Both the position numbers and the translations under genes were made by a program. Shown piece after piece: positions 10,464 to 64,000 of a stretch of DNA of 64,000 nucleotides. Each line of letters begins with the position of its first letter. Within the stretch, counting starts at the first letter, position 1. Below the pieces are notes generated by a model. It had not been told where the DNA came from. It did no database searches and worked only from the letters and a program-made list of their open reading frames with translations. This stretch comes from Alphaproteobacteria bacterium (lineage in GTDB: Bacteria > Pseudomonadota > Alphaproteobacteria > Bin95), in NCBI GenBank assembly GCA_965205265.1, contig CBDBGH010000003.1, forward strand, positions 5,120,001 to 5,184,000, given 5' to 3'.

Positions 10464-10472
10464 CGTTCCCTA

Positions 10473-11986: not shown

Positions 11987-12095
11987 AGCATGTCTCCTGC
12001 CTGGCCCCCGTGCACAGGCGGGGCGAGTGCGAAAGCCATTGTAGCATGGCCGACCCGCGGCCATCGCCGGCGACTGCACCTGGCAGCGCGGTGCG

Positions 12096-14207: not shown

Positions 14208-14217
14208 CGGCGGACCG

Positions 14218-29706: not shown

Positions 29707-32054
<2,348 letters not shown>

Positions 32055-32315: not shown

Positions 32316-32758
32316 GGCAGAGAACCACCTGGCGGCGGCACAGGGCGCAGGTGAACAGGCGGGCGGCGTTCCTCATCGCGACCGATGAGAACGGGGTGGA
32401 CCCACGCCCGGACGCGCACGATACTGCGCTTCCGGGCCGCGCCTTGCATGGCTCGGGGGGTGCGGCGCCGGTCGTTGCCACCAAGCCAACGGGGCCGGCG
32501 CCGCATCGTTCTCAGAAGCCCCAGTCTACCCCCTGCCGCAGCCCGGGAACGGCCAACCCGGTCGCCAGGACGTCGCCGCCCTCCGGGAGGCGAAAATCTC
32601 AACGCGACGGGGGCCGAGGACTCCGGTCGGGCTACGCCCTCCTTCCGTCCTCGGCCCCCGTCATAAACCCGGCCGCGCCTGTCTCACGCTGTTTGTCGTG
32701 CGCACCACAAAAGCGCGCTACGCCAGCAAATATGCGCCCTTTATGATAATCACCGACA
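32316..32758 (-). mobile_element. 443-bp left-end fragment of IS21 element B, cut by IS21-A
   Basis: Reverse complement of 46688-47130. Confidence 0.85.
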
Positions 32759-39161: not shown

Positions 39162-39578
39162 CTTCCGACCCCTTCCCTTGTCTGCCGGTCGCAGGAGCCC
39201 CCGTTGGGGAACACCCAGGACACGCCGGGGAACGGCGTCGGGTTCGAAGATCGGAAGGGCCGGAAGTGCCGCACTCAAACGCCGCGCGGGCTGCAAGCCA
39301 TTGTCAGAACTGGCCTTGCGGCGCTTCGCGGATGCGGGGGCGGAGTGATGATTTCTACGCCCTTCGGCGCGTGGTTCTCACACCCGACGCACCCGTGGTG
39401 CAGAGAGCGAGACCCGGCCGACCTTCAACGGTCGAGAGTTTTCCGTTGCACGACAAGGGGTTGGGGCCGGGTCCGGCCTCCGGCCGCGAGCCTGTGCGCA
39501 GGCCGCGTTGTCCGTTCGGAAACGCCGTTTCGTTCCCCCGGAACGGGCGGCATCCCAGGGAACGGATCCGGAGGCCCC

Positions 39579-44800: not shown

Positions 44801-45987
44801 GGGAGCCCGGACGGCAAGCGATGCGACAGACGCGATGAGACCTTTCCGGTTCCTTGTTCCCGTGCTGGCGGGGCTGTCGGTCCTGCTTGTTGCGGCGCCC
44901 GTCGCGCGCCCCGCCCTGGGCCAGGATGCGACCGACATGCGCTTCCGGGCCGGGATGGAGGCGCTTGCCGCCGCCGATGCCGCACCGGACCGGGAAGCCC
45001 GCGAGGGCAGGCTCGACGAGGCGGTCGCCGCCTTCCGGGCCATCCTGGTGGACCGCCCGGAGCTGGTGCGGGTGCGTCTCGAACTCGCCCGCGCCTTCTT
45101 CCTGAAGGAGGAGGACACGCTGGCGCGGCGGCATTTCGAGCAGGTGCTGGCGGGCGACGTGCCCCCGGCGGTCGCCGCCAACATCCGGCGCTTCCTCGAC
45201 ATCATCCGCGCGCGGCGGCGCTGGGAGGCGTGGTTCGGGGCGGCCATCGTCCCGGACAGCAACCTCAACGCCGCCTCGGGCGAGCGCACGGTCTTCCTCG
45301 ACACCCCGTTCGGCCGGCTGCCTTTCACCCTGGACGATCCCGCGAAGCCCGAATCCGGCCTCGGCGTCTCCTTCTGGGGCGGCGGCGAATACCAGCATCC
45401 GCTGAACGACCGCCTGCGCCTGCGCGCCGGGGCGGACGCCAGCGTCCGGGAATACAGGGGCGGGGAGTTCGACCGGCATTTCCTTGCCGCCCATGTCGGC
45501 CCGCGCTGGCTGATCGACGCCCGCACCGAAGCGAGCCTGCTGGCGACCGCGGACCGGCAATGGACCGCCGGCCGGCCCGAGACCGACAGCGTCGGCCTGC
45601 GCCTCGAAGGCGAGCATCTGCTGACGCCGCGCCTCGCGCTCTTCGCCCGCGCCGGCGCCGCCCGGCGCAACTGCCGCGGCTGCGACTGGCTCGACGGCCC
45701 GGTGGGCGACGTCTCGCTCGGCGCCAACTGGGCCGCGCTGACCATCCTGCGCCTCGGCGGCAATGCCGGCTGGAGCTGGGCCCGCGCCAGGGCCGAACAC
45801 TGGCGCAACAGCGGCCCGCGGGCGAGCCTCGGCGCCACGCTGGCGCTGCCGGCCGGCTTCACGCTCGGCCTGCGCGCCGCCCTGCAGCGCACCGACTATG
45901 AGGGCGGCGGCGCCGCCCACCGCACCATCGACCGCAAGCCGCGCCGGGACGACACGCGGACCCTCTCGGTCTCGGTCCACAACCGCG
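41505..45987 (+). repeat. Right arm of 4483-bp inverted duplication
   Basis: Mirror of 32759-37241. Confidence 0.93.
42055..44703 (+). CDS. Surface lipoprotein, Slam/T11SS cargo, copy 2
   Basis: Same as copy 1; AAGGAG RBS. Confidence 0.8.
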   Translation: MRIVKHWAIAVMAATALGLAGCGGGGSSPSTTTQMPAQTQTPYQKADAAIKAATTDAAVDKAVADATAGVSGEELAKLQAAAAARKTVLATMAREMDQKKALMDALAEVDTSDLSDADKLAAAKAAIAALKEALDDAGDVSDANKATYRTQLASAQTAVDRKEQMNALSGASGKLDMALAAFAGVTPTKAQLDAAMAALRELKAAIAGAEDLTDDEKDRYQAQADRADADDGQIKTAQGHYHDHVVKNIEGTQVAAAMEAVKMVTNTSGDDTVTDAQAAIDAAKAEIEGANIPESEKAKLRSKIAMHQGALDRAKDSRMAAKAEETRIAGVVTTITDGEIKAVMDAIARITSLSEESTVTDVEAAIAAAKTAIADANIPEANKELLRTRLALQEDAFGDAKTARMDGHRMGRALYAAMGPSDDTTAPVNALNNLATVPYYITSITDSQHDAPAEATGQRGERGDFRIDPAAGAGSIATANTHTAVYFRHGAEGRPGHDTTMDKVGRWNVTHYERTTGSGSMKVTDKVRVYNDRQGGPLERWGVVPMDAAKFFKDDTDWINKGTYEPFVSGNSGPKHARRLTLGTGVDRAIASATFDKWTVGIGSVTAPKPADGGAEIKVPGTYYGAPGNYFCPASGTCTVGTGVGGGGFGGYFMSADWYFVHDAGAKVLERDLSYMYFGWWVRNDADGMPAAVSAFYQSVGGGVDLATDGKSLNVNRGRAATYEGPAIGWYAINDPLNEKGGGGEFTATATLKAQFGTANLNADTGLTGTIHDFRLKNGMKNDWSVTLNKAAWTTDPSLATDAQKGHIVNTEKTVWSINGNKAAPAGSWVANLYDDKPGTVENGGDGSNHPTAIMGKFQAEHGGTHRMVGAFGTELQTPTTE

Positions 45988-46109: not shown

Positions 46110-47069
46110 ACGAACCCGGCCGCGGCGCGCCGAAAGGGGCCGGCCGTCCGGAAAGGGTGGACCCGACCCGCAGGACATGCCACAACGTGTCCTGGACAGG
46201 GCCCCGGGCTCGCGGGCAGGAGGACAAGGAAGCGGCAGGCGGGAAGACCGGAAACCGTTGCAAAACAAGGGTTCCCCGGCAACCTCCCGCAACGCCAACC
46301 GGAAAGCGAAAAGGCATCACAGATGCGTCGGGTGTGACGAACCATGAACCCGACGGGGGTCAGGATGGTCGGGATTTCCCTGCACACCGTCACCGCCTGA
46401 AGCGCCGGCATCACAAAGGATTGAAGCCGTCGCGGCGATTGAGCGAAACAACCGGGCCGCAGTCTGCGAGCGCGTTCCACGTTGCCGTTCGCGAACCGCG
46501 GTAACGGAACGGGTCTCGCGGCGCTGCGGCGCGCCGTTCGTCACACCGTGCGCACCAGGCGCCGGCACGGGCGGGACCTGTTCCCGCAGCGCAGGGCGTT
46601 CGTCCCACATGGTCCATGTCTCCAGGGATCGCGTTTCACATGTTCCACAGCGCAGCAGTGAACGGCGGCAGCGACAGCATTGCCGGCTGTCGGTGATTAT
46701 CATAAAGGGCGCATATTTGCTGGCGTAGCGCGCTTTTGTGGTGCGCACGACAAACAGCGTGAGACAGGCGCGGCCGGGTTTATGACGGGGGCCGAGGACG
46801 GAAGGAGGGCGTAGCCCGACCGGAGTCCTCGGCCCCCGTCGCGTTGAGATTTTCGCCTCCCGGAGGGCGGCGACGTCCTGGCGACCGGGTTGGCCGTTCC
46901 CGGGCTGCGGCAGGGGGTAGACTGGGGCTTCTGAGAACGATGCGGCGCCGGCCCCGTTGGCTTGGTGGCAACGACCGGCGCCGCACCCCCCGAGCCATGC
47001 AAGGCGCGGCCCGGAAGCGCAGTATCGTGCGCGTCCGGGCGTGGGTCCACCCCGTTCTCATCGGTCGCG

Positions 47070-47504
47070 ATGAGGAACGCCGCCCGCCTGTTCACCTGCG
47101 CCCTGTGCCGCCGCCAGGTGGTTCTCTGCCGGCGCTGCGACTCTGGCCATATCTACTGTTCGCCGCGTTGCAGCGGGCGGGCGCGGCGTCGGTCGGTGCG
47201 CCTTGCGGGGCAGCGCTACCAGAACAGCCGCCGGGGCCGTCACAAGCATGCCGAGCGCCAGCGGCGCTACCGCGAACGGCGCCGTGTGCGGCAGCCGGCA
47301 GTTCGGGCCATCGCGCAGAAAGTGACGCATCACCCTTTGACCGTCGCGCGCCGGCGTCCTGATGTGGCGCGCATACCGGCGGGGCGGTCCGGAACCCGGC
47401 CCTTCGGGCCCGACCGTCCCGCCCGGGTGTTCCGCTGCGAGCGCTGCGGTCGGTTCTGCGGCCTGGCGGTCTATCCGGGCCTGCGCCAGGCGCGAAGGGA
47501 GTGA
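47070..47504 (+). CDS. Cys-rich basic protein upstream of istA
   Basis: CALC..CRRC..YCSPRCS..CERCG; stop 1 bp before istA. Confidence 0.65.
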   Translation: MRNAARLFTCALCRRQVVLCRRCDSGHIYCSPRCSGRARRRSVRLAGQRYQNSRRGRHKHAERQRRYRERRRVRQPAVRAIAQKVTHHPLTVARRRPDVARIPAGRSGTRPFGPDRPARVFRCERCGRFCGLAVYPGLRQARRE

Positions 47505-50894: not shown

Positions 50895-51378
50895 TTCGTC
50901 GTTTACGGCCGTCTTCCTCTCCGAGGACAATTCGGTTTCTCCTGTGTGTCCCGACCATGTGTCGACTCTCGGATGTGCGCAATCATGCAGGTCAGCCGAT
51001 GCTGGCGTTGCATGGTCCCGTAATCGCAAGTCCCATGGGATTGTTCCAGTCGTACCGGCGCTGCGGCGGCGGCATGGACTGCTCGGCTGGAAAACGGCCC
51101 AAACGGGAAAGTCGCAGAGACTCCTCATACTGCCCGGATGGAGTTCGACAGACGGGCCGGCACGACTGCGGCCGATGGTGCGGATGCCGGGGGACGGTGA
51201 AGCCGTCATCGGCGAGAGCGGGAATGCGGAGGCGGTGCGCCGGGCTCTCGCGGCCGCGGCGGCGGACGCCGCCTTGCCCCCGTGCTCGGCGCTGCCACGC
51301 GTGAGTTCGCCCGCAGCGTCTTGATTGCACCGCAATCGCTGCGTAGACTGGTCTGCCGGAAGAACGGAGGACGGCGGC

Positions 51379-51621
51379 ATGGCGAGCATCACGATCCGCA
51401 ATCTCGACGACGAGGTGAAGACGCGCCTGCGCGTGCGGGCGGCCGAGCACCACCGCTCCATGGAAGAGGAAGCGCGGCTGATCCTGCGCGAGGCTGTCGA
51501 TCGCGGGCGGGAGACGAGGAACCTCGCGGAGATTGCCCGCTCGCATTTCGGGCCGGACAACGGGGTGGACCTGGAACTGCCGCCGCGCGAACCCGGACGC
51601 GAACCGCCGTCCTTCGATTGA
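51379..51621 (+). CDS. FitA-like ribbon-helix-helix antitoxin
   Basis: MASITIRNLDDEVKTRLRVRAAEHHRSMEEEAR. Confidence 0.9.
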   Translation: MASITIRNLDDEVKTRLRVRAAEHHRSMEEEARLILREAVDRGRETRNLAEIARSHFGPDNGVDLELPPREPGREPPSFD

Positions 51622-51631
51622 GCGCGGCGCA

Positions 51632-51786
51632 ATGTCCCTGCTGGTCGATACGAACGTGGTGTCGGAGTTGATCCGCCGGTCGCCCGATCCGGCGGTGGCA
51701 GGCTGGGTCGCCGCCCGCCCGCTGCACGAGCTTTTCTTCTCTGCCGTCGGCGAGGCGGAGTTGCGCTACGGCGCCGCGATCCTGGC
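51632..51786 (+). pseudogene. VapC/FitB PIN toxin truncated by IS21-A copy 2
   Basis: LVDTNVVSEL..PDPAV..W...AELRYG, then IS end. Confidence 0.88.
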
Positions 51787-52047
51787 TATAGCGCGACAAT
51801 CTGGGTGAGAGCCGCGCGTCAATCAGGATGAGATTCCCCGGCGGCATCGGCGAGTTGATGATTGTCGCGCGGGGCGCGGATTGCAAGCGGTTTCGGATTT
51901 TGATTGTCGCGGCGCGACAAACAGGGTTTTCGGAGAGCGTTTTGATTGTCGCGGGGGGGCCGTCGGGTCGGAGAAGAGACGGCCCGCGGAGGCGATTCCC
52001 GCGGGCTGTGAGTGTTGTGGCCGCTGGGCCGATCTGGCGGCAGCGGT

Positions 52048-54395
<2,348 letters not shown>

Positions 54396-54576
54396 CTACT
54401 CGGAAAAACGTCACCGTTCGCCCAGCCGACCGACCCCGCCAGAAGGTCCAGGAAAAATTTTTGAGGCGGCGGCCCGGAACTCCGGTCGGGCTACGCCCTC
54501 CCTCCGTTCCGGGCCGCCGCCTTCCCCCGTCTCATCCTGATTGTCGCCAGCGTCTCAAGCTGATTGTCGCGCCGCA

Positions 54577-55769
54577 CCCAGGGCCGGCTCGCTCTCGAAG
54601 AGACCCCGGGGGTCGGCACCTGGATAACCATGCCGGCGAAGAGTCTGAAGCCCCCTGGGCAACGCTCCAACCGCTGGCTGTTCAAGTGCCTGCGGTCGCT
54701 CAGCCACTGCGAGCTTTCCGGCATCCGCGACGAAACCCCATGGCAATCGGTACTCGTTTCGGAGTGGGGCCTGAGCAAGGGCAACACGGAAATCCACATC
54801 CTGCTGCCTCCCCTGGCGGCGGAGTTGCTCAAGTCCAGGATAACCTACGCCCGGATCGAATCCTCGATCCTTCACAGCATGCCACGCTCCCGGCACTCCC
54901 AGAAGCTATTCGCCGTGCTGGCGGACAGGCGCCGTCAGGACCGTCCCACATGGACATACAGCCTCGACGAACTGCGTGAGGCCCTCGACCTCAACCATCA
55001 GCGGCAATATACCGACTGGACGCGCCTGCGCCAGAAAGTGCTCGTCCCGGCGATCAACACGATCAACGCGAACAGCCCCGTCCAGGTCGCCATGACCCCG
55101 ATAAAGCTGGGACGGCAGGTCACGGCGGTCCGCTTCGACTGGGACTGGTCCGGCTATTCGCCTTCTTCCGCCAACAGCCTTCCCGAAACGGAATCCCACA
55201 CCCCCGACGACGGCCACGCCGAGGGGACCGATCCCGACAACCGGACCGAGGAAGCGCGCGAATGGTGGGCGGGGACAGACCGCAAAACCCGGAAATACAC
55301 CCTCCTCAAGCTCGGCATCGCCAACCCCGGATCCGAAGACCTCCAGGACGAGTCCCCCTACGCCCTCGAAGCCTGGCAACTCATCCGCGACCTCAAGGCC
55401 CCACCCGACGAAAGGGAACACCAACGCGACGCGCGCAGGCGGGTGCGGGGCTCGGCCACAACCGAACGCGAACAGGAATTCGAGAGACTCCTCGATGACC
55501 TGGGGCAACGGCCCGAGGACATGCCGATCCAGACCGACCCCCCCGAAACCGGAGAGCATGAGCCCGCCCGGGACAATCCCTTCTCCTCACTCTCGAGGCC
55601 GGCCGCACCCGAGGCCCAGCCAACCAGCCTGCTTCCGTTCCCCTCGACCGAATCGCTCCCCGAAACGGAGAGCCCTCCCCCGGCAAGAGGCGACCCGACG
55701 GAACAGGAAGAACCGCCCGACGACGAACTCGACCAGTTGAGCTGGTACGAGTCCCTTATCGGCCAATAG
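54577..55769 (+). pseudogene. Rep_3-family plasmid replication initiator, 5' end removed by IS21-A
   Basis: Winged-helix signature YSLDELREAL...Y.DWTRLRQKVL.PAI..IN...IKLGRQVTAVRF; ORF runs out of the IS end. Confidence 0.75.
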
Positions 55770-55976
55770 ACCCCGGCCTGGAAATCACAACCCCTCCCCG
55801 CAGCACCGGGCAAGCGGGCCCGCCTGTTGCCAGCGGCAGGCCACCACCCTATATGGCCCGCATGAATCCCGCCGACCCGAATCGCGCATTCCCGCTATCC
55901 TGTCCTGAAGAACAGGGTCGCGGCCGCGCGCGCGGTCGCAATGCCGGTCGCCGAATAACGCTCTGAACAACCTTGC

Positions 55977-56051
55977 GGGCTCGTAGCTCAACGGTCAGAG
56001 CAGGCGCCTTATAAGCGTCAGATCCAGGTTCAACTCCCGGCGGGCCTACCA
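55977..56051 (+). tRNA. tRNA-Ile, anticodon UAU, CCA encoded
   Basis: Acceptor GGGCTCG/CGGGCCT+ACCA; D arm GCTC/GAGC; anticodon arm GGCGC-CTTATAA-GCGTC; TTCAACT T loop (one A-C mismatch in T stem). Confidence 0.88.
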
Positions 56052-56209
56052 ACGCCGTCCAGATACCCTCTTCCGTCCATCCCCCCGCTCGCGAGCGGGG
56101 GACAGCGAAAAAGGAAAGGCGCTCGGAATTTTTTGGCACAATTCGGCGCCCGGGCGTCAAGACGTCGGACAATTCCGCTCCCGCCGCCGTCGGCGCCGCG
56201 CCCGTTGTC

Positions 56210-57140
56210 TCACATCCCGAAATCGTCCGCTGCCCGATCCCGTCCTTCCGGCCCGGCCTCTTCCGGTTCCTTCGCCGGTGAGACGGGCGCCGGCGGTTCG
56301 GGCATGCCGGCCGCGACCCAGGACCGGAAGGACGGGATCGGGCAGCGGTAAAGGCCGTCCGCGCAGGCCTGCAGCGCCCCGTGGTGGACCAAGTGGTCGA
56401 GAAACTCGTTCGCCTCCATCTTCCGAGGCAGGCGCCAACCGGAGCTTTTGTCCCCGTTCTCCCGGGCCAGACGCTCCAGTTCGTCGACGATGGCCCGGCG
56501 GCGCACGCCGCCTTTCGGCGGCAGGACCTGCATCAGCGCCTGCAGCATGAACTCGGCGCCATCCATCTCCGTCGAGACGCGCGGCCGGTACGCCTCCTCC
56601 ACACGCCGCCGGGCTTCCGCCTCGTCCACGGCGGGGAAGTCCACATCGGCGAGGCGGCGGCCGGCATCGGCCAGCCCGACCGCCAGCGCGCTCATGGCGT
56701 TGTACAGATGCTGCGGCCAGCCGTCGGAGCGGTCGGCCAGCCACGCCTCCCAGGACGCCCGGCAGCCACCCGCGCAGTCCACCCGGTATTTCGTGAACAG
56801 TCCGTCCAGGGCCTCGCGCACCTCGTCCTCGTCCAGCGCCTCCAGCGGGCGCACCGCACCGCCCGTGAAACGCGACAGGCCGATCTCGCGCAGGCTCTCG
56901 CGCGAAGAGCCCAGCCCCGCCATCACCGGCACGATCGGCAGGCCGTTCTCGGCCAGGTGAAGCTGGTTCAGAACCGCCAGTACGGACCGTCGCGAGCGCC
57001 TGCGCGCAGACCCCTTCGACCGCGGCGATCTCGCCCTGGCGCCCGACGAAGAACTCCGCCGGATGCCGGTCGCCGCGCCGCGCGAACGCCCGCAGGCCTT
57101 CCGTCAGGACGCTTTCGTCATTGGAGGCCGGGCCGTGCAT
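56210..57140 (-). pseudogene. AAA/ATP-binding protein with internal deletion and frameshift
   Basis: FFVGRQGEI N-terminus jumps near 56985 to LNQLH..PVMAGLG..SDGWPQHL in another frame; Walker A and B missing. Confidence 0.6.
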
Positions 57141-57369
57141 CGCCCCCCCTTTCTCTCCCCAGTATAGCACCGGAGGCCGGGCGGAAGACTGCTCGAAGGT
57201 AATGTGGCACGGGACCCGGCATCCGGACCCACACAACGGCATCCGGTGTACCGCAACAATTCAATACGGCTGGATCGGGCCGCCGGGCCTGAGGGATTGT
57301 GAGCAGATGGCGGCCCCGGGATTGCGTCCTGACGAACAGGGGCCGCATCCGGCATACATCCACAAACGG

Positions 57370-57579
57370 CTATAGCCGCTTCCCGATACCGGCCTGTTTC
57401 AGAATGTCGTTCGCCGTATGGCGGCTTTTGGGATTGAGCGGGACCGACAGGGTCCGTTTGCCGGAGCCCGACGCCTCGCGCCGCCATATCTCATGGCTGC
57501 CCTTGCCGGGCCGCTCTCCTCGAACCCATCCCTCAGCAGACAGAATACGGCGAAGATCCCGGCCGAAGCCTGACCCCAT
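57370..57579 (-). CDS. hicA: HicA-family mRNA interferase toxin
   Basis: GKGSHEIW...SRHTANDILKQAG. Confidence 0.88.
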   Translation of the reverse strand: MGSGFGRDLRRILSAEGWVRGERPGKGSHEIWRREASGSGKRTLSVPLNPKSRHTANDILKQAGIGKRL

Positions 57580-58001
57580 CAGGCGCGAACCGCTTTCGGG
57601 GCGAGATCGGGATCGGCCATCACCAGAGAAACGGACGATACCGAACCACTGCTTGGGCGCCAAAGACCGGGAAGGCCGACGACCATGCCGTCGTCAATGC
57701 TCGCGCTCCCCTTCTTGGGGGTGGAGTCTGTCACGAGACCGGGGAGCCCAAACCATTGTCCCTGTTGACGCCGCGAAGCCGGACGAACCGGCGGAACGGC
57801 GGGGACAAGGGACAGGCGGCAACCCTCTACCGGGATGCCGAGATTCTCCCGAATCAGGTACGGAGCGCAGTCCAGAAGGGCATCGACAAGCCCGGCTATG
57901 TCCGGAGCTTCCAGAACCAGGCCGGGGAGATCATCGCTCCCGGCAATCAGGACGCCGGTCTCCTCGCATTGCGAAACGGCAATCTGGAACTCACGGGTCA
58001 T
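57579..58001 (-). CDS. HicB-like/DUF1902 antitoxin
   Basis: CEETGV.IA.SDDLPGLVLEA; abuts hicA. Confidence 0.75.
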   Translation of the reverse strand: MTREFQIAVSQCEETGVLIAGSDDLPGLVLEAPDIAGLVDALLDCAPYLIRENLGIPVEGCRLSLVPAVPPVRPASRRQQGQWFGLPGLVTDSTPKKGSASIDDGMVVGLPGLWRPSSGSVSSVSLVMADPDLAPKAVRA

Positions 58002-58270
58002 GCCGCGCCTCTATCCGTGCGATGCTGCTCTGCGGCCGCGGCTGCAAAATCCAAGCTCATCATGAGGCACTCTACCCATTACTAACCTCACCTCAACTAT
58101 ACAGCCATTCGCGCTCCGCAGCCATAACATCGCCGACACCGGCAGCGAACGGGTCGGTCCGCGTCTGGCTGGCGGGGAAGGACGGGACCGGGGCACTTTG
58201 TGCCAGTTTAGCTTCGGCTAAAGGCGAGTACTTCGTCCACCGATCCCACAGAAATTCCGAACACCTCTCG

Positions 58271-58300
58271 AAAAAGGCCCCCGCGGCGAGCGGGGGCCTT
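58271..58300 (-). terminator. Rho-independent terminator
   Basis: AAGGCCCCCGC/GCGGGGGCCTT stem followed by a T-run on the minus strand. Confidence 0.7.
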
Positions 58301-58346
58301 CATTCGTGAACGAGCTGGGCTCCCGCCGCGAAAGCGGCGGGTCTGC

Positions 58347-59654
58347 CTACGGCTCCAGACGTTCCGCCTCGGCGGCCTCCGCACGCTGCGCCCAGTAACG
58401 GTCCTCGACCGCTGCACATGCCCCGCGCAACCGCTCCAGCTCGTCAGTGTCCGGAACTTCCTCCGGTGAAATCGTCGGGATCCCCTCGCCGCCATCCATC
58501 TCGAGCAGGGGACGCCGGTCCACCGTCTCCCAGGAATAGAAATAGTGCATCCCGTATCCCGGCTCGCGCACCAGAATCACGTCTCGCTCGTCCGCGCTCG
58601 CGAGCGACACCTCATACTGGTAGCGCTCCCCGACCGAGTCCTGGATCACCGTGCCCAGCTTCTCGACGGCCTTGTCCACCCGGGGGCCGCTCAGGACCTC
58701 GTCGCGGTCCCTGAACGCCTGGATCACCGTATCGTATTCCTCACGCTCCAGAATGCCGACCGCCAGATCCTCTATCGCCGTCTTCGTAAGCGGACGGAAA
58801 ACCTGCCTGCACAGGGCGCCATTCGTCCGCACCGCCTGGCGCAGCATGTTGTCGTCCACCAGCATCGGGCCGGTCGGCGCCCGCACCGTGACCCCGGCAT
58901 CCGCCCGGGCCGTCACGCCGCGCTCCCCGAGAACGCCGTTCATGCCCTCGGGACTCGCTCGGCCCGCATCCGCGTTCGCCGGATCGAGAACCCGAATGCG
59001 CTCCCGCAGCATCCTCGCCTCCAGATACCGGTCGAGTCCCTCGGGAACCGGGGCATCGCGCAGGTTCTCGAGGACGTTCATCATCAGCCCGGTCTGGTCG
59101 AAGGACCGGCTCTGCGTCCGCTCCCCTATATCGCCCACGAACACGCGCAGCGTCCCGATCAGCCCTCGGCGGAGATCCTCCTCGATCACCTCGTGCGCCC
59201 TGTCCGAGTGCAGCCAGGAATGCAGCCGAAGCATGATCGCCGCGTTGTTGCCCCCCTCCGCAATCAGGGGGATGTTGCCGTCCTGCTCGGCCCGCTCCAC
59301 GTCGCCCTCGATATTGCGCGTGTTCCGCAGCGTGTAGAGGACAGGCTCCATCCCATCCCCGTCCTCCTCCGCATCCGGAGCCTCGTCCGCCTCCGGCACA
59401 ATCACCGTCGCCCTGGTCGCGCCATCCTCGCTGCGCCAGATCGCCAGACCCATGCCGGGGTCCATGTCCACCGCGTAGGCAGCCGGGTCGTCGTCCTCGC
59501 TCTCCCGCAGGACCGCCGCCGACGGCAGTATCACCTGGGCGTTCGTCCTGTACGCCGTCTCCGCGTCATGACGCGTCGTCGCGAACGACTGATACGCCTC
59601 CTTCGCCTTCTCCATCAGGACGCTCACATTGATGCGCATCGCTCTCTTCTCCAA
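58347..59654 (-). CDS. Hypothetical acidic protein
   Basis: 435-aa ORF with strong codon bias; no recognised motif. Confidence 0.75.
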   Translation of the reverse strand: MEKRAMRINVSVLMEKAKEAYQSFATTRHDAETAYRTNAQVILPSAAVLRESEDDDPAAYAVDMDPGMGLAIWRSEDGATRATVIVPEADEAPDAEEDGDGMEPVLYTLRNTRNIEGDVERAEQDGNIPLIAEGGNNAAIMLRLHSWLHSDRAHEVIEEDLRRGLIGTLRVFVGDIGERTQSRSFDQTGLMMNVLENLRDAPVPEGLDRYLEARMLRERIRVLDPANADAGRASPEGMNGVLGERGVTARADAGVTVRAPTGPMLVDDNMLRQAVRTNGALCRQVFRPLTKTAIEDLAVGILEREEYDTVIQAFRDRDEVLSGPRVDKAVEKLGTVIQDSVGERYQYEVSLASADERDVILVREPGYGMHYFYSWETVDRRPLLEMDGGEGIPTISPEEVPDTDELERLRGACAAVEDRYWAQRAEAAEAERLEP

Positions 59655-59731
59655 TCGCGGTCCGCTGCTCCGTCACATCCCCGAACCTAAAAGGGGGGTG
59701 TGAAAACGCCAAACCCGAAACCCTGCCGCCA

Positions 59732-61384
59732 TCAATCCCAGGGCGACGGAGCCGGCAGGGTCTCCGCGCCGGGGCCCTCTATCCCCAGACGTCGAGCCCA
59801 GAAGGCAGCCGACGCCATCTCGTGGTTCTGCTCCGCATGCTGGCGCAATTCCATCCAGCAGCGCCCGAGAAGATTCTCCCCCACCAGACGCTCGCCCCTG
59901 GGAACAGCGCCCCAAAACCCGTCGCGGCGCGAGATCTCGACGATCGGCAATCCCCCTGTCCTCTCGAACTCCCGGTCAACCCCCGCAGGGTCCGCCTCCC
60001 GTTTCAGACGAATGGCCCATCTCATCACATCCAGCCGGCGGTCCTCCCAGCCCTCCACCGGGATGTTCGACGGATCGCGGCCGATCTCCGCCGCCCGCTT
60101 CGCCGTCGGCGCGGCCGCAATGAGATCCTGCACCTCCCGCGAATGCGGAAACTTCGCGAACATGTGATAGACATGCTCCGACGTCGGCAATTCCCACGGG
60201 CCGAGCCGGATCGGCTCTTCCAGCGGATAGAAGTTCGAGAACCGGCCCCACTCCGCGCGCGTGAACCGGAACGCGCAAACCCCGGATGGCTCATAGACCC
60301 GCGCGCCGCCGGCGCGGTCCTCCGGCGAATCCGAAAACGACCGCCTGGCCGACGTCACGGACCGATGCAGGGCCTCCATCGAATTGCGGACCTGCAACTC
60401 CGCCGTCTTGCCAAGGTTCAGGACCGGAATGCCATACCGCGACGCAATCAGGAGCCCCATCCCCGTGCCACCGGACACCGCGCCTCCGGCCGTCCAGCAA
60501 ACAACCGCATCCACAGGGCGGTCCAGCTCCGGGCCCAGAAGAATCGCGACATTGCGCGCATGCAGGCGCCGGGCACCCTGCGAGCACCGCTCCCACGCCG
60601 GGTGCAACGAAGCGGCAATCTCCACACAGCGCCCGAATGCAGGACGGTCCAGGACAAAGCAGTCCGGACCCTCCAGACCGTTGTAGCCCTCCCAGGGAAG
60701 CAACAGCTGGCGCTGCGAAGGCGGCACGCCGTCCTGGAAGGCGCTGTCCGCGCCCTTGGCGCCGCCGGTGCGCAACAGCCAGCCCTCCGACGCCCAGGCG
60801 GCTGCCATCAGCCGCATCGACTCCAGGACGGCGGGAGGAGTCTCCCGCGATCCGATGCCGGCATAGGCCGGCCTGCGCTGCCTGAACATCGAGTTCACTC
60901 CCTTCCCTCCTTGCTCCGGGGCGGTCGCCCGCGGTTGCATCACCGTCACGATCCCGGGAGCCATTCCCCCCAGTTCCCTCTCTATCAGTCCCTTCACAAT
61001 TCCCCAGTCCAGTCCGCCGAGTCCCGCACCCAGCGCCGGGACGGCGACCGAACCGATCCCTCTCCTCTCCAATTCCCGCCGGAGGCTCCTCAGCCCTTCC
61101 TCTACATCCCCGGCGCGGCTGCGGTCGCGCCAGTGCCTCTTGGTCGGGAAATTCACGATATAGCGCGGCAGCGTCCCTTCCCCCCGGTCGAACACCATGA
61201 CCCGGCCGGGGCGCATCGCATTCCGCCCGCAGGCCGCCCTGTATGCCTCGAAATTCTCCGGAAACCGTCTTCGGAACTCAAGCGCGAGCCCCTTCCCCAT
61301 CACCCCGACGCAATTCACCGGATTGACCAGCGCCTCGGCGCCGGTCTCGAAAATGTCGCCTTCCGTGAAAACAGGGCCGGCCAT
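59732..61384 (-). CDS. Macro (DarG-like) + SLOG/DprA-like + NADAR triple fusion
   Basis: VNPVNCVGVMGKGLA..NFPTK.HW..PALGAGLGGL; YAGIGSRETP..TGGAKGAD..GGTG; FSNFY..TSEH..DGFWG..GENLLG...MELR. Confidence 0.85.
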   Translation of the reverse strand: MAGPVFTEGDIFETGAEALVNPVNCVGVMGKGLALEFRRRFPENFEAYRAACGRNAMRPGRVMVFDRGEGTLPRYIVNFPTKRHWRDRSRAGDVEEGLRSLRRELERRGIGSVAVPALGAGLGGLDWGIVKGLIERELGGMAPGIVTVMQPRATAPEQGGKGVNSMFRQRRPAYAGIGSRETPPAVLESMRLMAAAWASEGWLLRTGGAKGADSAFQDGVPPSQRQLLLPWEGYNGLEGPDCFVLDRPAFGRCVEIAASLHPAWERCSQGARRLHARNVAILLGPELDRPVDAVVCWTAGGAVSGGTGMGLLIASRYGIPVLNLGKTAELQVRNSMEALHRSVTSARRSFSDSPEDRAGGARVYEPSGVCAFRFTRAEWGRFSNFYPLEEPIRLGPWELPTSEHVYHMFAKFPHSREVQDLIAAAPTAKRAAEIGRDPSNIPVEGWEDRRLDVMRWAIRLKREADPAGVDREFERTGGLPIVEISRRDGFWGAVPRGERLVGENLLGRCWMELRQHAEQNHEMASAAFWARRLGIEGPGAETLPAPSPWD

Positions 61385-61386
61385 CG

Positions 61387-61797
61387 CTACGGCGAAGGAC
61401 TCGGCAGCCCATCATCGGCATCCGGAAACCCGGCGCGGCGGGCCGCGTCATCCAGCTCGTCCCCCTCTTCAACAATCCGGCACGCCCGGCGCGCCGCAGA
61501 GCAATAGACGGAAAGCGGATATTTGGCCTCGAAGAAACGGTCGCGCTCCACCGCCAGACCCATAGGGCCCTTCAAGGATTCCAGCTCGCTTAGCCGGATA
61601 CTACCCGGTTCCGGGAATCCCATCCCCAGGTCGGCCAACCCGAACAGAAGATCGCGGTCCTCGGAATCCATCCGCGCAATGAGCCAGGTGCAGGGCCCGT
61701 CCGGCGTGAAGAACTTCACGACCGGGCAGTGATCGCCGCCACGCTCCTGTCCGTTCCGCAACAGAAGACGCTCGATGTCCTTGGTCACCAGCTTCAT
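61387..61797 (-). CDS. DUF2958 protein
   Basis: PVVKFFTPD..TWL...FGLADLGMGFPE.G...LSEL...VERDRFF. Confidence 0.85.
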   Translation of the reverse strand: MKLVTKDIERLLLRNGQERGGDHCPVVKFFTPDGPCTWLIARMDSEDRDLLFGLADLGMGFPEPGSIRLSELESLKGPMGLAVERDRFFEAKYPLSVYCSAARRACRIVEEGDELDDAARRAGFPDADDGLPSPSP

Positions 61798-61817
61798 GGC
61801 CAGGTCACTCCTCTTTT

Positions 61818-62810
61818 TCACGGCCCCGCCGACGGCGTAGCCGCCAAGGGCGCGAACAGCGCTTCCCGGTCCACGCCCTCCGCAACGATCTCCGAGAGGT
61901 CGGCCCCGTCGAACCTCGCGTCCTCCACCCGACTCCAGGACAGGTCCGCCCCGAACAGATAGGCCTCCCGGAAATCCGCGTGGGTCATGTCCGCCGACAC
62001 CATGCGGACATGCGGAAAATACCCGTTCGCGAGCACGGCCGACCTCATGTCGGCCCGGCTGAAATCCGCATCGCGGCACTGCGCGCCCGTCATCCGAGCC
62101 CCCGAGAGCAGCGCGGAATCCAGCTTTGCGCGGTACAGGACCGCCCCATCGAGACCCGCCTCGCGCAAATCGCAACCCGTCATCACGGCATCCGCAAGCC
62201 CGGCTTTCCCGAGACTCGCCCGGGCCATCCGTGCCCCCACGAACGTGGCGCCCGGAAACCTGCCCTCCTCCATGACGGCCCCGGCCATGTCCGCCCGGAC
62301 GAAATTGGCCCCGGCGGCCATAATCCCCGTCATCCGGGCGCTGGACAGGACCGCATCCAGAAAACAGGCTCCTTCGGCACAGGCGTTCCGGAATCTCGCC
62401 CCGGTCAGGTCCGCCTGGATAAAATCCGCCCTGCCCAACTCGGCGGACACAAAACTCGCGTCCGTCAATTTCGCTTCCCGGAACAGGGCGCCGACAAGGT
62501 CGGCTTCGTCAAACAGCGTCCCGACGAGCGAGGCACGGTGAAACTTCGCTCCGCCCAGTCGTGCCCCGCGGAAATCCACGCCGTCCAGACGGGCATTGTA
62601 GAAGGACGAACACAGGCCCTTCAGATCGCGCAGCATCGCCGAGGTCAGGACCGCGGAATCCAGCCTCGCCCCGGTCAGGTCCGCACCGCGGAAATCCGAG
62701 CCGCTCAGGTCAAGGCCGCTCAGGTCGGCGCCGGCCATGTCCACATCCCGGAAATCGCGCTCACCGGCCGCATAGCGGGCAACAAGCTCCTCTCGGGAAA
62801 GCTCATGCAC
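61818..62810 (-). CDS. Pentapeptide-repeat protein
   Basis: RYAAGERDF then continuous A(D/N)LxxA repeats. Confidence 0.92.
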   Translation of the reverse strand: MHELSREELVARYAAGERDFRDVDMAGADLSGLDLSGSDFRGADLTGARLDSAVLTSAMLRDLKGLCSSFYNARLDGVDFRGARLGGAKFHRASLVGTLFDEADLVGALFREAKLTDASFVSAELGRADFIQADLTGARFRNACAEGACFLDAVLSSARMTGIMAAGANFVRADMAGAVMEEGRFPGATFVGARMARASLGKAGLADAVMTGCDLREAGLDGAVLYRAKLDSALLSGARMTGAQCRDADFSRADMRSAVLANGYFPHVRMVSADMTHADFREAYLFGADLSWSRVEDARFDGADLSEIVAEGVDREALFAPLAATPSAGP

Positions 62811-62946
62811 TCGAAAATCCCCTCCTCGCCTTCCGGCGGCACGTCGATGCGCCGCCTCTCTCCCAAGCTCCCGTCATGCAGGGAATCCCTGAAAATTCAA
62901 AACCGCCGGGCACCGCGGCGGAAGCCGCCCGCCCGCACGTCCGGGC

Positions 62947-63480
62947 CTACAGTCCGAAATCGAGGCGGGTGAACAGCGGGACGAGCCGCACGCCTTCGCG
63001 GGCGAGATTCGCTTCCGCGCCCTCCCGGCGGTCCACGACGGTATAGAGTGTTTCTACCCGGGCACCGGCGGCCCGCGCCGCCTCGACAGCGATCAGGGCA
63101 GATCCTCCGGTTGTCGTCACATCCTCGAACAGCAAGACCTCGCCACCCCTCGGCAGCCACCCCTCGACACGGCGGCCGGTGCCATGACCCTTGGCCTGCA
63201 TGCGCACGAAAAAGCCGCGGAGCGGGCGTTCCGTGCGGTGGCTCAGGACGCAGATCGCCGCCACGACAGGCAGGGCGCCGATGGCGACGCCGCCTATATG
63301 GTCCGCCCGCTCCGCGGCGATCTTCTCAAGGAATGTCTCGGCCAGCAGGGACAGTCCCTCCGGGTCGAGCATGACCGGCTTCATGTCGACAAAGAAATCC
63401 GTGGTCGCGCCCGAGGCCAGAACGAAGCGCCCCCGGGACAGGGCCTGTTCGGAAATCAAGGCGTGAAGGCGGTCCCGCAT
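62947..63480 (-). CDS. pyrE: Orotate phosphoribosyltransferase
   Basis: GRFVLASG..FFVD, KGHGT..VEG, FEDVTTTGGS and VVDRREG motifs. Confidence 0.9.
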   Translation of the reverse strand: MRDRLHALISEQALSRGRFVLASGATTDFFVDMKPVMLDPEGLSLLAETFLEKIAAERADHIGGVAIGALPVVAAICVLSHRTERPLRGFFVRMQAKGHGTGRRVEGWLPRGGEVLLFEDVTTTGGSALIAVEAARAAGARVETLYTVVDRREGAEANLAREGVRLVPLFTRLDFGL

Positions 63481-64000
63481 GGCCCGATGTCGTCCTCCGG
63501 CAATATCCCGGCAGCCATGCCCGCCACGCCGTCGAGGCGGGCTCCGGCGAAGTCCGATCCTGCCGCAACCGCACCGGTAAAGTCCGCCCGGTCGAGCCAG
63601 GCGTCCCGGAAGTCGGTTCCGTCCAGACGGGCCTGCCGGAAAAGAGCCCGGCACATCCGGGCTCCCTCAAACCTGCCGCCGGTCAGATTGGCCCCGGTGA
63701 AGTCGGCGCCCGAGGCGAACAGACGCCGCGCGTCCGCGCCGCGCAGATCGGACCGCGCCAGCTTCGCGCCTGCCAGGGTCGTCTCCGCCAGACACAGGCC
63801 GACCAGGATGGCGTCGGTAAAGTCGGCTCCGTTCAGATTGGCGCCGAAGGCATCCGCATCCGTCAAGTCCGCGCCGGCAAGCACGATCCCCGGCAGGTTG
63901 GCGGCCCGCAGGCGGGCCCTGGTCAGATTGGCCCCGGCGAGATCGAGGCCCGGCAGGGAGACGGAAAGAAGGTCGATTCCGCGCAGGTCCACGCCCCGGA
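63456..64000 (-). CDS. Pentapeptide-repeat protein, partial (5' end outside window)
   Basis: Continuous pentapeptide repeats. Confidence 0.88.
   Translation of the reverse strand, partial: RGVDLRGIDLLSVSLPGLDLAGANLTRARLRAANLPGIVLAGADLTDADAFGANLNGADFTDAILVGLCLAETTLAGAKLARSDLRGADARRLFASGADFTGANLTGGRFEGARMCRALFRQARLDGTDFRDAWLDRADFTGAVAAGSDFAGARLDGVAGMAAGILPEDDIGPCGTAFTP

Follow-up and report, generated by a model that had tools for sequence, protein, structure and literature searches.

A toxin-less Macro-SLOG-NADAR fusion protein and its possible role in counter-defence against DNA ADP-ribosylation

DarG, of the DarTG2 systems of T. aquaticus and M. tuberculosis (PDB 5M31, 5M3E and 5M3I), carries an N-terminal macrodomain and a C-terminal DarT-binding domain, and its gene lies adjacent to darT. 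The protein described here, P0001, has a similar N-terminal macrodomain (49–50% identity in structural alignment) but lacks both the DarT-binding domain and the adjacent toxin gene. In further contrast to DarG, its macrodomain belongs to a DarT-free branch and is fused to a SLOG and a NADAR domain. Toxin-less orphans of the same domain families are known from phages: AdfM of PhiKZ, a DarG2-like macro protein, was reported in the accessible part of its source to counter DarTG2, and the NADARs termed AdfN in phages act against DarTG1, though not against DarTG2. These invader-carried phage proteins have a single domain and act on one DarT class each, whereas P0001 places both domains and a SLOG domain in one bacterial polypeptide.

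Fusions of Macro, SLOG and NADAR domains were already catalogued by Iyer et al. 2022 (PMC9503650). The consulted portion of that survey describes the same domain set and the same kind of shuffled architectures that we found among relatives of P0001, and proposes an early-acting counter-immunity role, as we do for P0001. However, the fusions in that survey are from phages and NCLDVs and were predicted to act on soluble derivatives of ADP-ribose (ADPr), whereas P0001 and the relatives nearest to it occur in bacterial genomes, in some cases adjoining conjugation genes, and the macrodomain is specifically DarG-type.

P0001 lies in a 64,000-nucleotide stretch of DNA, all of which was analysed and which we call the window. 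We observed domains of identified family that keep their catalytic residues, no DarT in the window and no DarT-binding half in the protein; we also observed that the macrodomain lineage is DarT-free, and that some relatives have a conjugation-type gene context. Our main reading, to which we assign a probability of about 0.5, is that P0001 is an orphan counter-defence enzyme erasing thymine- and guanine-linked ADP-ribosylation of DNA. We infer the substrates from homology, and likewise infer activity in cells, the role of the SLOG domain and the timing of expression.

Domains of the fusion protein

The gene and the parts of its product are as follows:

59732..61384, minus strand: Macro-SLOG-NADAR gene (P0001), a single ORF of 550 aa with its ATG at 61384
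60932..61369, minus strand: macrodomain, DarG type, residues 6–151 (NCBIfam, PDB, Foldseek)
60881..60925, minus strand: macro-SLOG linker, residues 154–168, predicted disordered, pLDDT <50
60332..60868, minus strand: SLOG/'DprA-like' Rossmannoid domain, residues ~173–351 (phrog_768)
59786..60301, minus strand: NADAR domain, YbiA-type, residues 362–533 (Pfam, PDB, Foldseek)

A sequence identical to P0001 was present in a protein collection drawn from NCBI and ENA sources. AlphaFold (AF2) domain parsing from an alignment of 120 sequences gave three confidently folded domains (mean pLDDT 89.5); the single-sequence model reached a pLDDT of 36.8, and the alignment-based model was used instead. Together with the Pfam, NCBIfam and PHROGs matches, this model bore out the proposal of an earlier note, made from the DNA letters, that a macrodomain, a SLOG/DprA-like domain and a NADAR domain are joined in one ORF. 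The suggestion that the fusion is recent was contradicted: clusters P0003–P0005 are collinear with P0001 over residues 6–529 at just 50% identity, which indicates that the fusion is old.

The N-terminal domain matched Pfam Macro at residues 20–130 (E = 1.1e-18, 67.8 bits, cutoff 22). NCBIfam antitoxin_DarG aligned residues 6–158 with profile positions 3–155 of 338 (E = 5.8e-61), and the PADLOC DarG model gave E = 7.3e-61. The NCBIfam score of 206.6 bits was under the cutoff of 250, and profile positions 156–338, the DarT-binding half, were unmatched; where DarG has its DarT-binding domain, P0001 has SLOG and NADAR (residues 173–533). A PDB search recovered DarG structures (5m31 of T. aquaticus, E = 1.6e-40; 5m3i, E = 1.4e-37), versus only E = 1.6e-4 for TARG1. 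Foldseek superposed the model on the T. aquaticus DarG-ADPr complex (5m3e) with a TM score of 0.95, an rmsd of 1.2 Å and 49% identity. Lysine K82 of P0001, in the motif PTKRHW, aligned with the first lysine of PTKKHW in 5m31 and 5m3i. Since K80 is the catalytic lysine of T. aquaticus DarG (PMC11543638), K82 would be its equivalent, given the numbering offset that we deduced for the tagged PDB chain. Conservation analysis indicated that N24 and the G119–G124 loop are kept as well. Judged by sequence and model, the macrodomain is thus of the DarG type, as the earlier note had claimed, and not a generic macro.

The C-terminal domain matched Pfam NADAR (PF08719) at residues 377–515 (E = 3.4e-15, 57.1 bits, cutoff 35.1). 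The PDB search returned YbiA (2b3w, E = 1.8e-10) and 8bau (E = 2.5e-6), and Foldseek gave a TM score of 0.72 to 2b3w. The key residues in P0001 are E403, K411, G435/R436, W446, R450, E483, D488 and W491, of which the catalytic E403, K411 and E483 were identified as retained by alignment to 8bau and 2b3w in the published numbering. The reference positions are E43 and K50, catalytic in the P. nicotianae NADAR, and the subfamily glutamate E125. E483 stands at the E125-equivalent position, which is the YbiA signature. For this reason the domain should not be equated with a NADAR-type DarG1, as had been supposed: DarG1 (BC4488-type, DarT1-linked) has an aspartate at the position of D171 in E. coli C7, whereas P0001 has the glutamate, and no DarT1-linked NADAR chains were matched in the PDB search at E<=0.01.

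Experimental background on NADAR domains bears on the main reading in both directions. As far as the consulted parts of the sources go, all four E. coli NADAR subtypes, YbiA included, hydrolysed guanine-linked ADPr in vitro and did not hydrolyse the thymine-linked form, and all NADARs assayed to date act on guanine-ADPr in nucleic acids. In cells, E. coli YbiA and a T4 NADAR reportedly gave no rescue from DarT1 despite their in vitro activity, and this counts against the main reading, as does the YbiA-type character of the P0001 domain. Also against it are the spacing of the catalytic residues, E-x7-K in P0001 versus E-x6-K in relatives (a one-residue insertion), and departures from the family consensus at H407, M408, L479 and C509. 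E. coli YbiA/DS-32B has the NADAR fold and Glu-type active site in common with P0001, but it is a stand-alone protein, whereas the NADAR domain of P0001 is fused, scores under both curated cutoffs and bears the insertion in its catalytic helix.

The two curated models concerned are NCBIfam DS32_2 ('NADAR family anti-phage protein'), which was the best model for the domain (E = 9.3e-29, 99.8 bits, cutoff 240), and TIGR02464 (riboflavin-intermediate N-glycosidase; E = 4.4e-15, 56.3 bits, cutoff 73.7). The closest stand-alone NADARs scored 90–135 bits against DS32_2, likewise under its cutoff. The TIGR02464 match would fit an enzyme that takes no part in conflict and has a housekeeping function, either in DNA repair or in the metabolism of nucleotides or riboflavin, and the placement of E. 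coli ybiA within a LexA-controlled operon, as given in the accessible part of the source, would fit it too. We regard this explanation as highly improbable: the score is under cutoff, the NADAR domain is fused to a DarG-type macrodomain, and the fusion has a patchy distribution and mobile-element neighbourhoods.

The middle domain matched phrog_768 ('DprA-like DNA recombination-mediator protein') over its full length, with E = 6.3e-51 and profile positions 5–174 of 191 aligned, and its AF2 model has a Rossmann-like beta-alpha-beta topology. Matches to DprA itself were weak. Pfam DNA_processg_A (DprA) aligned with residues 162–216 at E = 0.024 (14.3 bits, cutoff 29.6); relatives of P0001 reached at best 1.2e-6 against this model and 7.9e-6 against LDcluster4, both under the cutoffs. 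A profile of the domain searched against the PDB had DprA as its best four matches, at E = 0.002–0.005 over the N-terminal ~47 residues only; hhalign against E. coli Smf gave a non-significant probability of 3.5%; and a Foldseek search of the PDB with the whole model had no SLOG-domain match among the matches listed, which macrodomains dominated. The SLOG/DprA label is therefore a family-level one: membership of the phrog_768 family stood, and the relation to DprA proper did not gain comparable support.

Within this family, the conserved residues are G176, G178, R180, T182, P183 and G207-x-A209-x-G211-A212-D213, followed by H261-P262-x-W264, R277-N278 and G305-G306-T307. The N-terminal G-x-G-(S/T)-R...TP and GGAxGxD motifs are shared with DprA/Smf, but the likeness is limited to the ~47 residues (E ~2e-3), and the H-P-x-W and R-N motifs are invariants of the phrog_768-type family, unlike DprA. 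Annotated phage proteins were 41–47% identical to the middle domain, and 4875 representative proteins belonged to the family at E<=1e-3. Our literature search returned no experimental function for this phage and plasmid 'DprA-like' SLOG family; the processing of NAD-derived nucleotides by SLOG domains is put forward as a prediction in the consulted portion of Iyer et al. 2022 (PMC9503650). P0001 may thus be an entry point to a large family.

The linker between the macrodomain and SLOG contains a Shine-Dalgarno-like (SD-like) stretch and an in-frame ATG, GGGAGTGAACTCGATG, at 60887–60902 (Met166). The motif was correctly reported in the earlier note, which read it as an internal start. Its frequency gives that reading no support: GGGAG-N5-10-ATG occurred 21 times in the window versus 16.45 ± 4.04 times in shuffled sequence, and 16 of 221 internal in-frame ATGs across 26 genes had an SD-like motif. 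We concluded that the motif occurs at chance level, and the idea of two products from the gene is unsupported.

Gene neighbourhood and replicon

P0001 is flanked on the same strand by the following genes:

61387..61797, minus strand: DUF2958 gene, 136 aa, directly upstream (Pfam E = 8.9e-36)
61818..62810, minus strand: pentapeptide-repeat protein, 330 aa (Pfam Pentapeptide E = 1.3e-50)
62947..63480, minus strand: PyrE-type phosphoribosyltransferase (PRTase), 177 aa (TIGR00336 127.1 bits, cutoff 106.8)
58347..59639, minus strand: downstream gene P435, 430 aa from the ATG at 59639, or 435 aa from a TTG at 59654

The stop codon of the DUF2958 gene is 2 nt ahead of the P0001 ATG, so the two genes appear to be translationally coupled. 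The pentapeptide-repeat gene, whose product scored 126.5 bits against the NCBIfam Alr5209-type model (cutoff 125), stops 20 nt short of the DUF2958 ATG and is probably the first gene of the P0001 operon. P435 starts 92 nt past the P0001 stop codon. Its product had no significant match in Pfam, PHROG or NCBIfam and no usable match in the ESM Atlas, and its relatives formed just 5 clusters in 5.8 billion proteins. The P435 cluster P0324 and the Macro-SLOG relative P0010 were each found on an 84,842-bp contig. We considered whether the C-terminal extension of ~370 aa in the 900-aa relatives of P0001 corresponds to P435, and rejected this for lack of similarity (best E = 15).

The PyrE-type gene is followed by a terminator-like hairpin at 62903–62921 and is probably outside the operon. 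Its presence on the same strand 1.5 kb upstream of P0001, along with the DS32_2 match, raises the alternative that P0001 supplies the NADAR part in a defence or toxin-antitoxin module resembling DS-32, since the available part of the DefensePredictor preprint describes DS-32 as a pair of genes, one for a NADAR protein and the other for a PRTase. This is very unlikely, and we set it aside: the DS32_2 score is far under its cutoff, the PRTase is an ordinary PyrE-type enzyme that scores above its own cutoff and matched no DS-32 model, two genes plus the hairpin stand between it and P0001, and homologues of the PRTase occurred at none of 80 related loci.

No DarT (DUF4433) was detected in the 265 ORFs of the window (stop-to-stop, at least 130 aa), and no ART-fold family was matched in them. 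In the DarT scan, 229 of these ORFs were searched directly and the other 36 as start-trimmed versions, two of which were covered solely through 100%-identical inverted copies. The earlier note's statement that DarT is missing from the window was thus borne out. We take P0001 to be an orphan because of this result, the unmatched DarT-binding half of the DarG profile, and the presence of DUF2958 in the upstream position, 2 nt away.

The region around P0001 is rich in mobile elements and next to a Rep_3-type gene; the window also holds IS elements, integrases, and HicAB and FitA-like toxin-antitoxin (TA) genes. We saw no relaxase or type IV secretion (T4SS) genes in the window, the record of the identical 550-aa protein places it on a contig of 5,463,552 bp, and a megablast of positions 54400–64000 had no match in 72,556 plasmid records. 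The earlier description of the gene as plasmid-borne is therefore doubtful. For the same reasons, namely the 5.46-Mb contig and the window free of relaxase and T4SS genes, the case for an invading-element role is weak for this particular copy.

Related loci and the macrodomain tree

Searching with four full-length fusions gave 429 confirmed relatives, of which 80 loci were kept. Forty-six were canonical (DarT plus macro), 18 had a macro gene only, and 16 were modular, meaning that the macrodomain occurred with SLOG, NADAR or DUF4326. The DarT gene was immediately upstream of the macro gene in all 46 canonical loci. In contrast, DarT was detected in 0 of the 16 modular loci, using an HMM built from DarT2-type neighbours that a very divergent transferase could escape.

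These counts also bear on whether P0001 could be a self-immunity protein or antitoxin, protecting the host's own nucleic acids from an ADP-ribosyltransferase elsewhere in the genome. That transferase could be the product of a darT gene beyond the window, an ART resembling YarT, or an ART toxin of the polymorphic or T6SS kind. A precedent exists in myxobacteria, where the accessible part of the source describes a YbiA-type NADAR as antitoxin to YarT, an unrelated ART. Moreover, the window edge is 2.6 kb upstream of the gene, most of the 5.46-Mb contig extends beyond the window, and the HicAB and FitA-like TA genes are nearby. Against this, P0001 has DUF2958 in the position that DarT takes in every canonical locus, no ART-fold family was matched in the window ORFs and no DarT in the modular relatives, and P0001 lacks the toxin-binding domain of DarG. 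We consider such a role improbable.

A tree of the macrodomain (81 rows, 146 columns) contained a split with support of 100/98 that placed all 46 DarT-linked rows and 11 orphans on one side, and 24 rows on the other. The latter, DarT-free side comprised the 16 modular rows, 7 orphans and P0001 itself. The branch leading to P0001 was long (0.92), and support for placing it in the modular clade was only 94/76, which weakens the main reading. Annotation is affected as well, because the NCBIfam and PADLOC models now label this DarT-free lineage of DarG-type macrodomains as 'DarG'.

The order of modules varied among 21 relatives and the 16 modular loci, with architectures that included Macro-SLOG-NADAR plus extension, Macro-NADAR, Macro-SLOG, SLOG-NADAR, SLOG-NADAR-Macro-DUF4326 and Macro-AlkB. 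Eleven of the 16 modular loci entered a Pfam scan of neighbours, which covered 53 ORFs in total, one of them from locus L067. It identified a TrwC relaxase (L067), a topoisomerase (L059), a DUF7146-Toprim primase (L031), a RecD-like helicase (L020), an IrrE peptidase (L019), and AAA_34/Helicase_C_4 (Sbno-like helicase) proteins of ~1550 aa at L006, L047 and L052. On two annotated megaplasmids, Macro-SLOG genes were in long co-directional arrays with no DarT annotated, and these arrays also hold ImmA/IrrE, SocA, RNase H and a cytosine methyltransferase. Homologues of DUF2958, the pentapeptide-repeat protein and P435 were found at none of the 80 loci, and this failure of the operon partners to recur is a further point against the main reading.

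Counter-defence and soluble ADP-ribose

The anti-defence role suggested in the earlier note is plausible in light of AdfM and AdfN and of the 16 of 80 related loci that are modular without a DarT match. P0001 would be a toxin-less, polyvalent ADP-ribose remover such as mobile elements carry, with counter-defence as its most likely job. Its DarG-type macrodomain would take ADP-ribose off thymine in ssDNA, the product of DarT2, and its YbiA-type NADAR would take it off guanine, the product of DarT1 and ScARP-like transferases. DarT damage of both known classes on the DNA of the element could then be reversed by one polypeptide. The SLOG/DprA-like module may bind a ligand of nucleotide type, ssDNA or else a derivative of ADP-ribose, and might in this way keep the enzyme at its substrate or act on the ADP-ribose moiety once it is freed. 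If this is true, P0001 provides, in one compact natural enzyme, the means to reverse the two known types of DNA damage by DarT, and it would widen anti-DarT counter-defence from phages to conjugative or integrative elements.

A different substrate is proposed in the model of Iyer, Burroughs and Aravind. Here P0001 would degrade soluble molecules derived from ADP-ribose (cADPR isomers, ADPr-1''P and the like) that act as immune signals or are toxic metabolites, rather than DNA adducts. Macro, SLOG and NADAR would each attack their own bond in a single small molecule, and the protein would blunt TIR/Thoeris-type or other NAD-based defences. The consulted portion of PMC9503650 describes fusions and neighbourhoods of SLOG with Macro, NADAR and DUF4326 in DNA viruses, and argues that the domains share out the work on ADPr derivatives of low molecular weight; its assignment of such combinations to soluble derivatives stands against our main reading. 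The shuffling of four modules in many orders among the relatives fits the steps of a sequential pathway, and the invariant His, Asp and Arg-Asn pair of the SLOG domain resemble a ligand or active site more than a DNA-binding surface. However, the macrodomain is 49–60% identical to the macrodomains of bona fide DarT-linked DarG proteins, a type specialised for thymine-linked ADPr on ssDNA; it keeps the catalytic lysine, and it is distant from small-molecule enzymes of the MacroD and Poa1p type. The nucleic acid substrates of the NADARs assayed also disagree with the soluble model, and our literature search found no degradation of TIR signals by Macro, SLOG or NADAR domains. On balance we think that soluble ADPr is unlikely to be the target, although this is the strongest of the competing explanations.

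Returning to the DNA-directed counter-defence reading, DarT acts on ssDNA, and conjugative DNA enters cells as ssDNA. If the reading holds, P0001 would therefore offer a direct way to probe whether DarTG restricts plasmid transfer. A more specific version, that P0001 is a pan-DarT antidote of conjugative or integrative elements whose SLOG domain guides it to incoming ssDNA, is a speculative suggestion that we hold tentatively, with considerably less confidence than the general reading. Were it true, DarTG would be a real barrier to conjugation that is met by a dedicated enzymatic counter-measure. The main text of a paper on leading regions (PMC11541004) contains none of the terms NADAR, ADP-ribos-, DUF2958, DprA or pentapeptide, and 'macro' occurs there solely inside 'macrolide', in the reference list. 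Among phages, tblastn identified relatives of both catalytic domains: macro proteins of chimalliviruses (Goslar, 45.7% identity) and NADARs of large myoviruses (~31%).

The target gene, its probable operon and its domains

The target protein (P0001) is encoded by a single ORF, which lies among the following features.

Target gene and neighbouring features
58347-59639: family-less gene downstream of the target, 92 nt beyond it
59732-61384, minus strand: target ORF, 550 aa, ATG at 61384
61387-61797: DUF2958 gene, upstream neighbour, stop codon 2 nt before the target ATG
61818-62810: pentapeptide-repeat gene, 20-nt gap to the DUF2958 gene
62903-62921: terminator-like hairpin, between the target operon and a PyrE-type phosphoribosyltransferase gene farther upstream

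Given gaps of 20 nt, 2 nt and 92 nt, the pentapeptide-repeat, DUF2958, target and downstream genes look like one operon. The identical 550-aa sequence was found in the protein collection on a 5,463,552-bp contig, and megablast of window 54400-64000 gave no match in 72,556 plasmid records; the earlier note's description of the gene as plasmid-borne is not shown. Coverage of at least 80% of the target protein was reached in none of 156 plasmid records and none of 1439 phage records (tblastn). In a second assembly (106,360-bp contig), the same sequence bears a 331-aa gene call (P0002) whose start is an internal GTG (window 60727, V220 of the target); this call lacks all of the macro domain and some of the SLOG domain.

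Pfam detected Macro (residues 20-130, E = 1.1e-18) and NADAR (residues 377-515, E = 3.4e-15) above cutoff, and DprA below threshold (residues 162-216, E = 0.024). Residues 6-158 matched the macro half of DarG (E = 5.8e-61 in NCBIfam, 7.3e-61 in PADLOC). Because the DarG profile was matched only at positions 3-155 of 338, the DarT-binding half is absent from the target. The middle domain was matched at full length by phrog_768, ‘DprA-like DNA recombination-mediator protein’ (E = 6.3e-51). AF2 modelling used an alignment of 120 sequences, in which the macro, SLOG and NADAR regions had depths of ~21, ~65 and ~62; the model had a mean pLDDT of 89.5 and three folded domains joined by low-confidence linkers (residues 154-168 and 352-358). 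With a pTM of 0.56, it does not define how the domains are oriented relative to one another. These results bear out the three-domain ORF that had been read from the sequence. In Foldseek comparisons, the macro domain matched Thermus aquaticus DarG-ADPr (5m3e) with TM 0.95, rmsd 1.2 Å and 49% identity, and the NADAR domain matched YbiA (2b3w) with TM 0.72. We concluded that the gene is real and well defined, and that its class of architecture is already catalogued.

Conserved residues and the middle domain

Target residue K82 (PTKRHW) aligned with the first lysine of PTKKHW in the DarG chains of both T. aquaticus and M. tuberculosis; this lysine, K80, is reported as critical for catalysis in the available text of PMC11543638. 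NADAR residues were mapped by alignment to 8bau and 2b3w, with roles taken from the P. nicotianae NADAR. The correspondences (P. nicotianae in brackets) were E403 (E43), K411 (~K50), G435/R436 (G78/R79), W446 (W89), R450 (R93), E483 (E125), D488 (D130) and W491 (W133). At the E125 position, the same source gives Glu as the YbiA-subfamily signature, Asp in DarT1-linked NADARs and His in phage NADARs. The target NADAR has one extra residue between the catalytic Glu and Lys, an insertion lacking in close relatives, and departs from the family consensus at H407, M408, L479 and C509.

The middle-domain family is very large: E-value limits of 1e-3, 1e-10 and 1e-30 gave 4875, 3334 and 286 representative proteins respectively, its members being stand-alone proteins of ~170-230 aa or segments of 1000-1963-aa proteins. 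With the whole protein as tblastn query, the domain turned up in phages (1439 records) under the annotation ‘DprA-like’ and on large plasmids under ‘hypothetical protein’. We accept the domain's membership of this phage and plasmid ‘DprA-like’ family (phrog_768). The link to DprA itself is thin: the family profile placed four DprA entries at the top of the PDB sequences (E 0.002-0.005) over only ~47 N-terminal residues, and hhalign gave the SLOG domain a probability of 3.5% against E. coli Smf. The SLOG superfamily assignment follows the available text of Iyer et al. 2022 (PMC9503650), supported here only by the motif and a Rossmann-like topology. All family-conserved residues are present in the target: G176, G178, R180, T182, P183 and the GGAxGAD loop (207-213), together with H261-P-x-W264, R277-N278 and G305-G306-T307.

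Relatives, the absence of DarT, and possible function

A word-based protein search scored 8000 candidates, and the 5827 proteins that passed E ≤ 0.001 were mostly ~350-aa DarG; the nearest relatives were multi-domain proteins. Three ~900-aa clusters (P0003-5) carry Macro-SLOG-NADAR in the target's order plus a ~370-aa extension, and are collinear with it over residues 6-529 at 50% identity. Other architectures were Macro-SLOG, SLOG-NADAR, Macro-NADAR (360 aa), Macro-DUF4326-SLOG, SLOG-NADAR-DUF4326 and Macro-AlkB. In alignment, the 360-aa Macro-NADAR proteins correspond to the triple fusion without its SLOG cassette, and the fusion is therefore old and modular. These forms and the collinear clusters contradict the recent fusion proposed earlier, and the internal ribosome-binding motif offered as a sign of fusion or of two products was at chance level. 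Two proteins of Acinetobacter phage vB_AbaM_ME3, one a macro (‘Appr-1-p processing’) and the other DprA-like, have consecutive accession numbers (BFVD A0A172Q0U4 / A0A172Q0U5), so their genes may adjoin; if adjacent, they would be the split form of the Macro-SLOG pair.

No match to DarT or another ADP-ribosyltransferase family was found among 265 stop-to-stop ORFs of at least 130 aa within the window; the earlier note had likewise stated that the window lacks a DarT toxin. A scan of 185,579 species genomes confirmed 429 relatives; 80 loci were retained and their ORFs searched with profiles built in this analysis; flanks were at most 8 kb, contigs were short in places, and the DarT profile was built from DarT2-type neighbours. 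Within these limits, the loci divided as follows.

Related loci (n = 80)
46/80: ~350-400-aa macro ORF with a DarT ORF as its immediate upstream neighbour; DarT match
18/80: macro only; no DarT match
16/80: modular, macro combined with SLOG, NADAR or DUF4326 in one ORF or across neighbouring ORFs; DarT match in 0/16

A maximum likelihood tree of 81 macro domains (146 columns) was split at 100/98 support, with all 46 DarT-linked rows and 11 orphans on one side, and the 16 modular rows, 7 orphans and the window on the other. The window macro fell in a 10-row modular clade (94/76) on a long branch (0.92). An unlinked ADP-ribosyltransferase partner, encoded elsewhere in the genome, is a rival reading that we regard as improbable.

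A Pfam scan covered 11 of the modular loci with 53 ORFs in all, of which L067 supplied one, and identified a type IA topoisomerase (L059), DUF7146-Toprim (L031), a RecD-like helicase (L020), ~1550-aa AAA_34/Helicase_C_4 proteins directly upstream (L006, L047, L052), an IrrE peptidase (L019), HicA with a UvrD-type helicase (L003) and a TrwC relaxase directly upstream (L067). On two annotated megaplasmids, Macro-SLOG genes lie within long co-directional arrays that include ImmA/IrrE, SocA, RNase H and cytosine methyltransferase. L059 and L067, on one Dehalococcoidia MAG contig, hold identical 1182-aa SLOG-NADAR-Macro-DUF4326 copies ~190 kb apart, one directly downstream of the 1885-aa TrwC relaxase, which suggests duplicated, or two related, integrated conjugative elements.

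In the best-supported reading, to which we give roughly even odds, the target would be an orphan de-ADP-ribosylase of mobile-element type, in which the macro domain would strip ADP-ribose from thymine in DNA, the NADAR domain would strip it from guanine in DNA, and the SLOG module may bind ssDNA or an ADPr-type ligand. In the available text of the cited papers, ADP-ribosylation is reversed on thymine by the DarG macrodomain and on guanine by NADARs (PMC11543638); the orphan NADARs of phages (AdfN) act against DarTG1, not DarTG2 (PMC11825919); and AdfM, a DarG2-like macro of PhiKZ, counters DarTG2 (PMC13309987). All four E. coli NADAR subtypes, YbiA included, hydrolyse G-ADPr and none hydrolyses T-ADPr, and neither YbiA nor T4 NADAR gave cellular rescue from DarT1 (PMC11125620). 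A role in housekeeping metabolism seems very improbable. As the main rival, the protein would act on soluble ADPr signals: Iyer et al. 2022 (PMC9503650), as far as its accessible text goes, described DNA-virus fusions and neighbourhoods that combine SLOG with Macro, NADAR and DUF4326, and proposed soluble ADPr derivatives as their targets. The target's macro domain, however, is very close to true DarG, and we consider this rival unlikely. Our literature search found no paper testing a Macro/SLOG/NADAR fusion and no combined macro and NADAR anti-DarT protein described for plasmids or ICEs; the main text of the leading-region paper (PMC11541004) does not mention NADAR, ADP-ribos-, DUF2958, DprA or pentapeptide. 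The dual anti-DarT hypothesis is specific and testable.

A 177-aa PyrE-type phosphoribosyltransferase gene (62947-63480, minus strand; 127 bits against a cutoff of 106.8) is flanked by pentapeptide-repeat genes (63456-63992 and 61818-62810) and lies 1.5 kb from the NADAR domain. A DS-32-like pairing with the target, after the published DS-32 defence system of a NADAR protein and a phosphoribosyltransferase (DefensePredictor preprint), seems very improbable; the terminator-like hairpin comes after this gene.

Other features of the window

The downstream gene product (430/435 aa, 58347-59639) had no family match, and among 5.8 billion proteins only 5 clusters (53-100% identity) matched it. One of these clusters, P0324, and the Macro-SLOG relative P0010 lie on contigs of equal length (84,842 bp), a hint that the two families travel together.

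Type II CRISPR-Cas locus (3326-10469)
3326-4081: CRISPR repeat array, 66-nt period, 11.4 copies
4121-4570, minus strand: cas2
4491-5426, minus strand: cas1
5517-6899, minus strand: UPF0236-type transposase ORF, 460 aa, between cas1 and cas9
6797-7324, minus strand: DUF6788 ORF, between cas1 and cas9
7293-10469, minus strand: Cas9, 1058 aa, with RuvC_III, HNH_4 and Cas9_a domains

The two ORFs between cas1 and cas9 suggest an IS insertion inside the cas operon. A T4 Rnl1-type RNA ligase (12521-13789, minus strand) adjoins a Zeta-toxin/AAA_33 kinase-like ORF (14122-14835, plus strand), and the two may be an RNA-repair pair; a DUF6878 ORF (10683-11243) and a Uma2-family endonuclease (11282-12256, minus strand) lie near the ligase. 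After a full-length RecQ helicase (17819-19714) come a 622-aa ORF without a match and three consecutive ankyrin-repeat proteins (21526-22518, 22476-23798, 23838-25097), a cluster (17819-25097) that is unusual for a bacterium.

Nested inverted-repeat pairs, 100% identical (29640-54462)
29640-32320 / 51782-54462: 2681 nt, IS21 istA-istB copies
32316-32763 / 46683-47130: 448 nt
32759-37246 / 41500-45987: 4488 nt

The arms of these three pairs carry Slam-like genes and an 882-aa ORF without a Pfam match, and three integrase genes lie between them (38010-41890); the arrangement either arose by a recent mirror duplication or is an artefact of assembly. A FitA-like antitoxin is encoded at 51325-51621. 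The window's single tRNA gene, tRNA-Ile (anticodon TAT, 55977-56051), has a Rep_3-type initiator gene (54564-55769) on one side and the HicAB/target region on the other, and may mark the border of an island or be an accessory tRNA. Just downstream of the target operon are a HicA toxin (57370-57663, minus strand) and a DUF1902/HicB-like antitoxin (57579-58001, minus strand).
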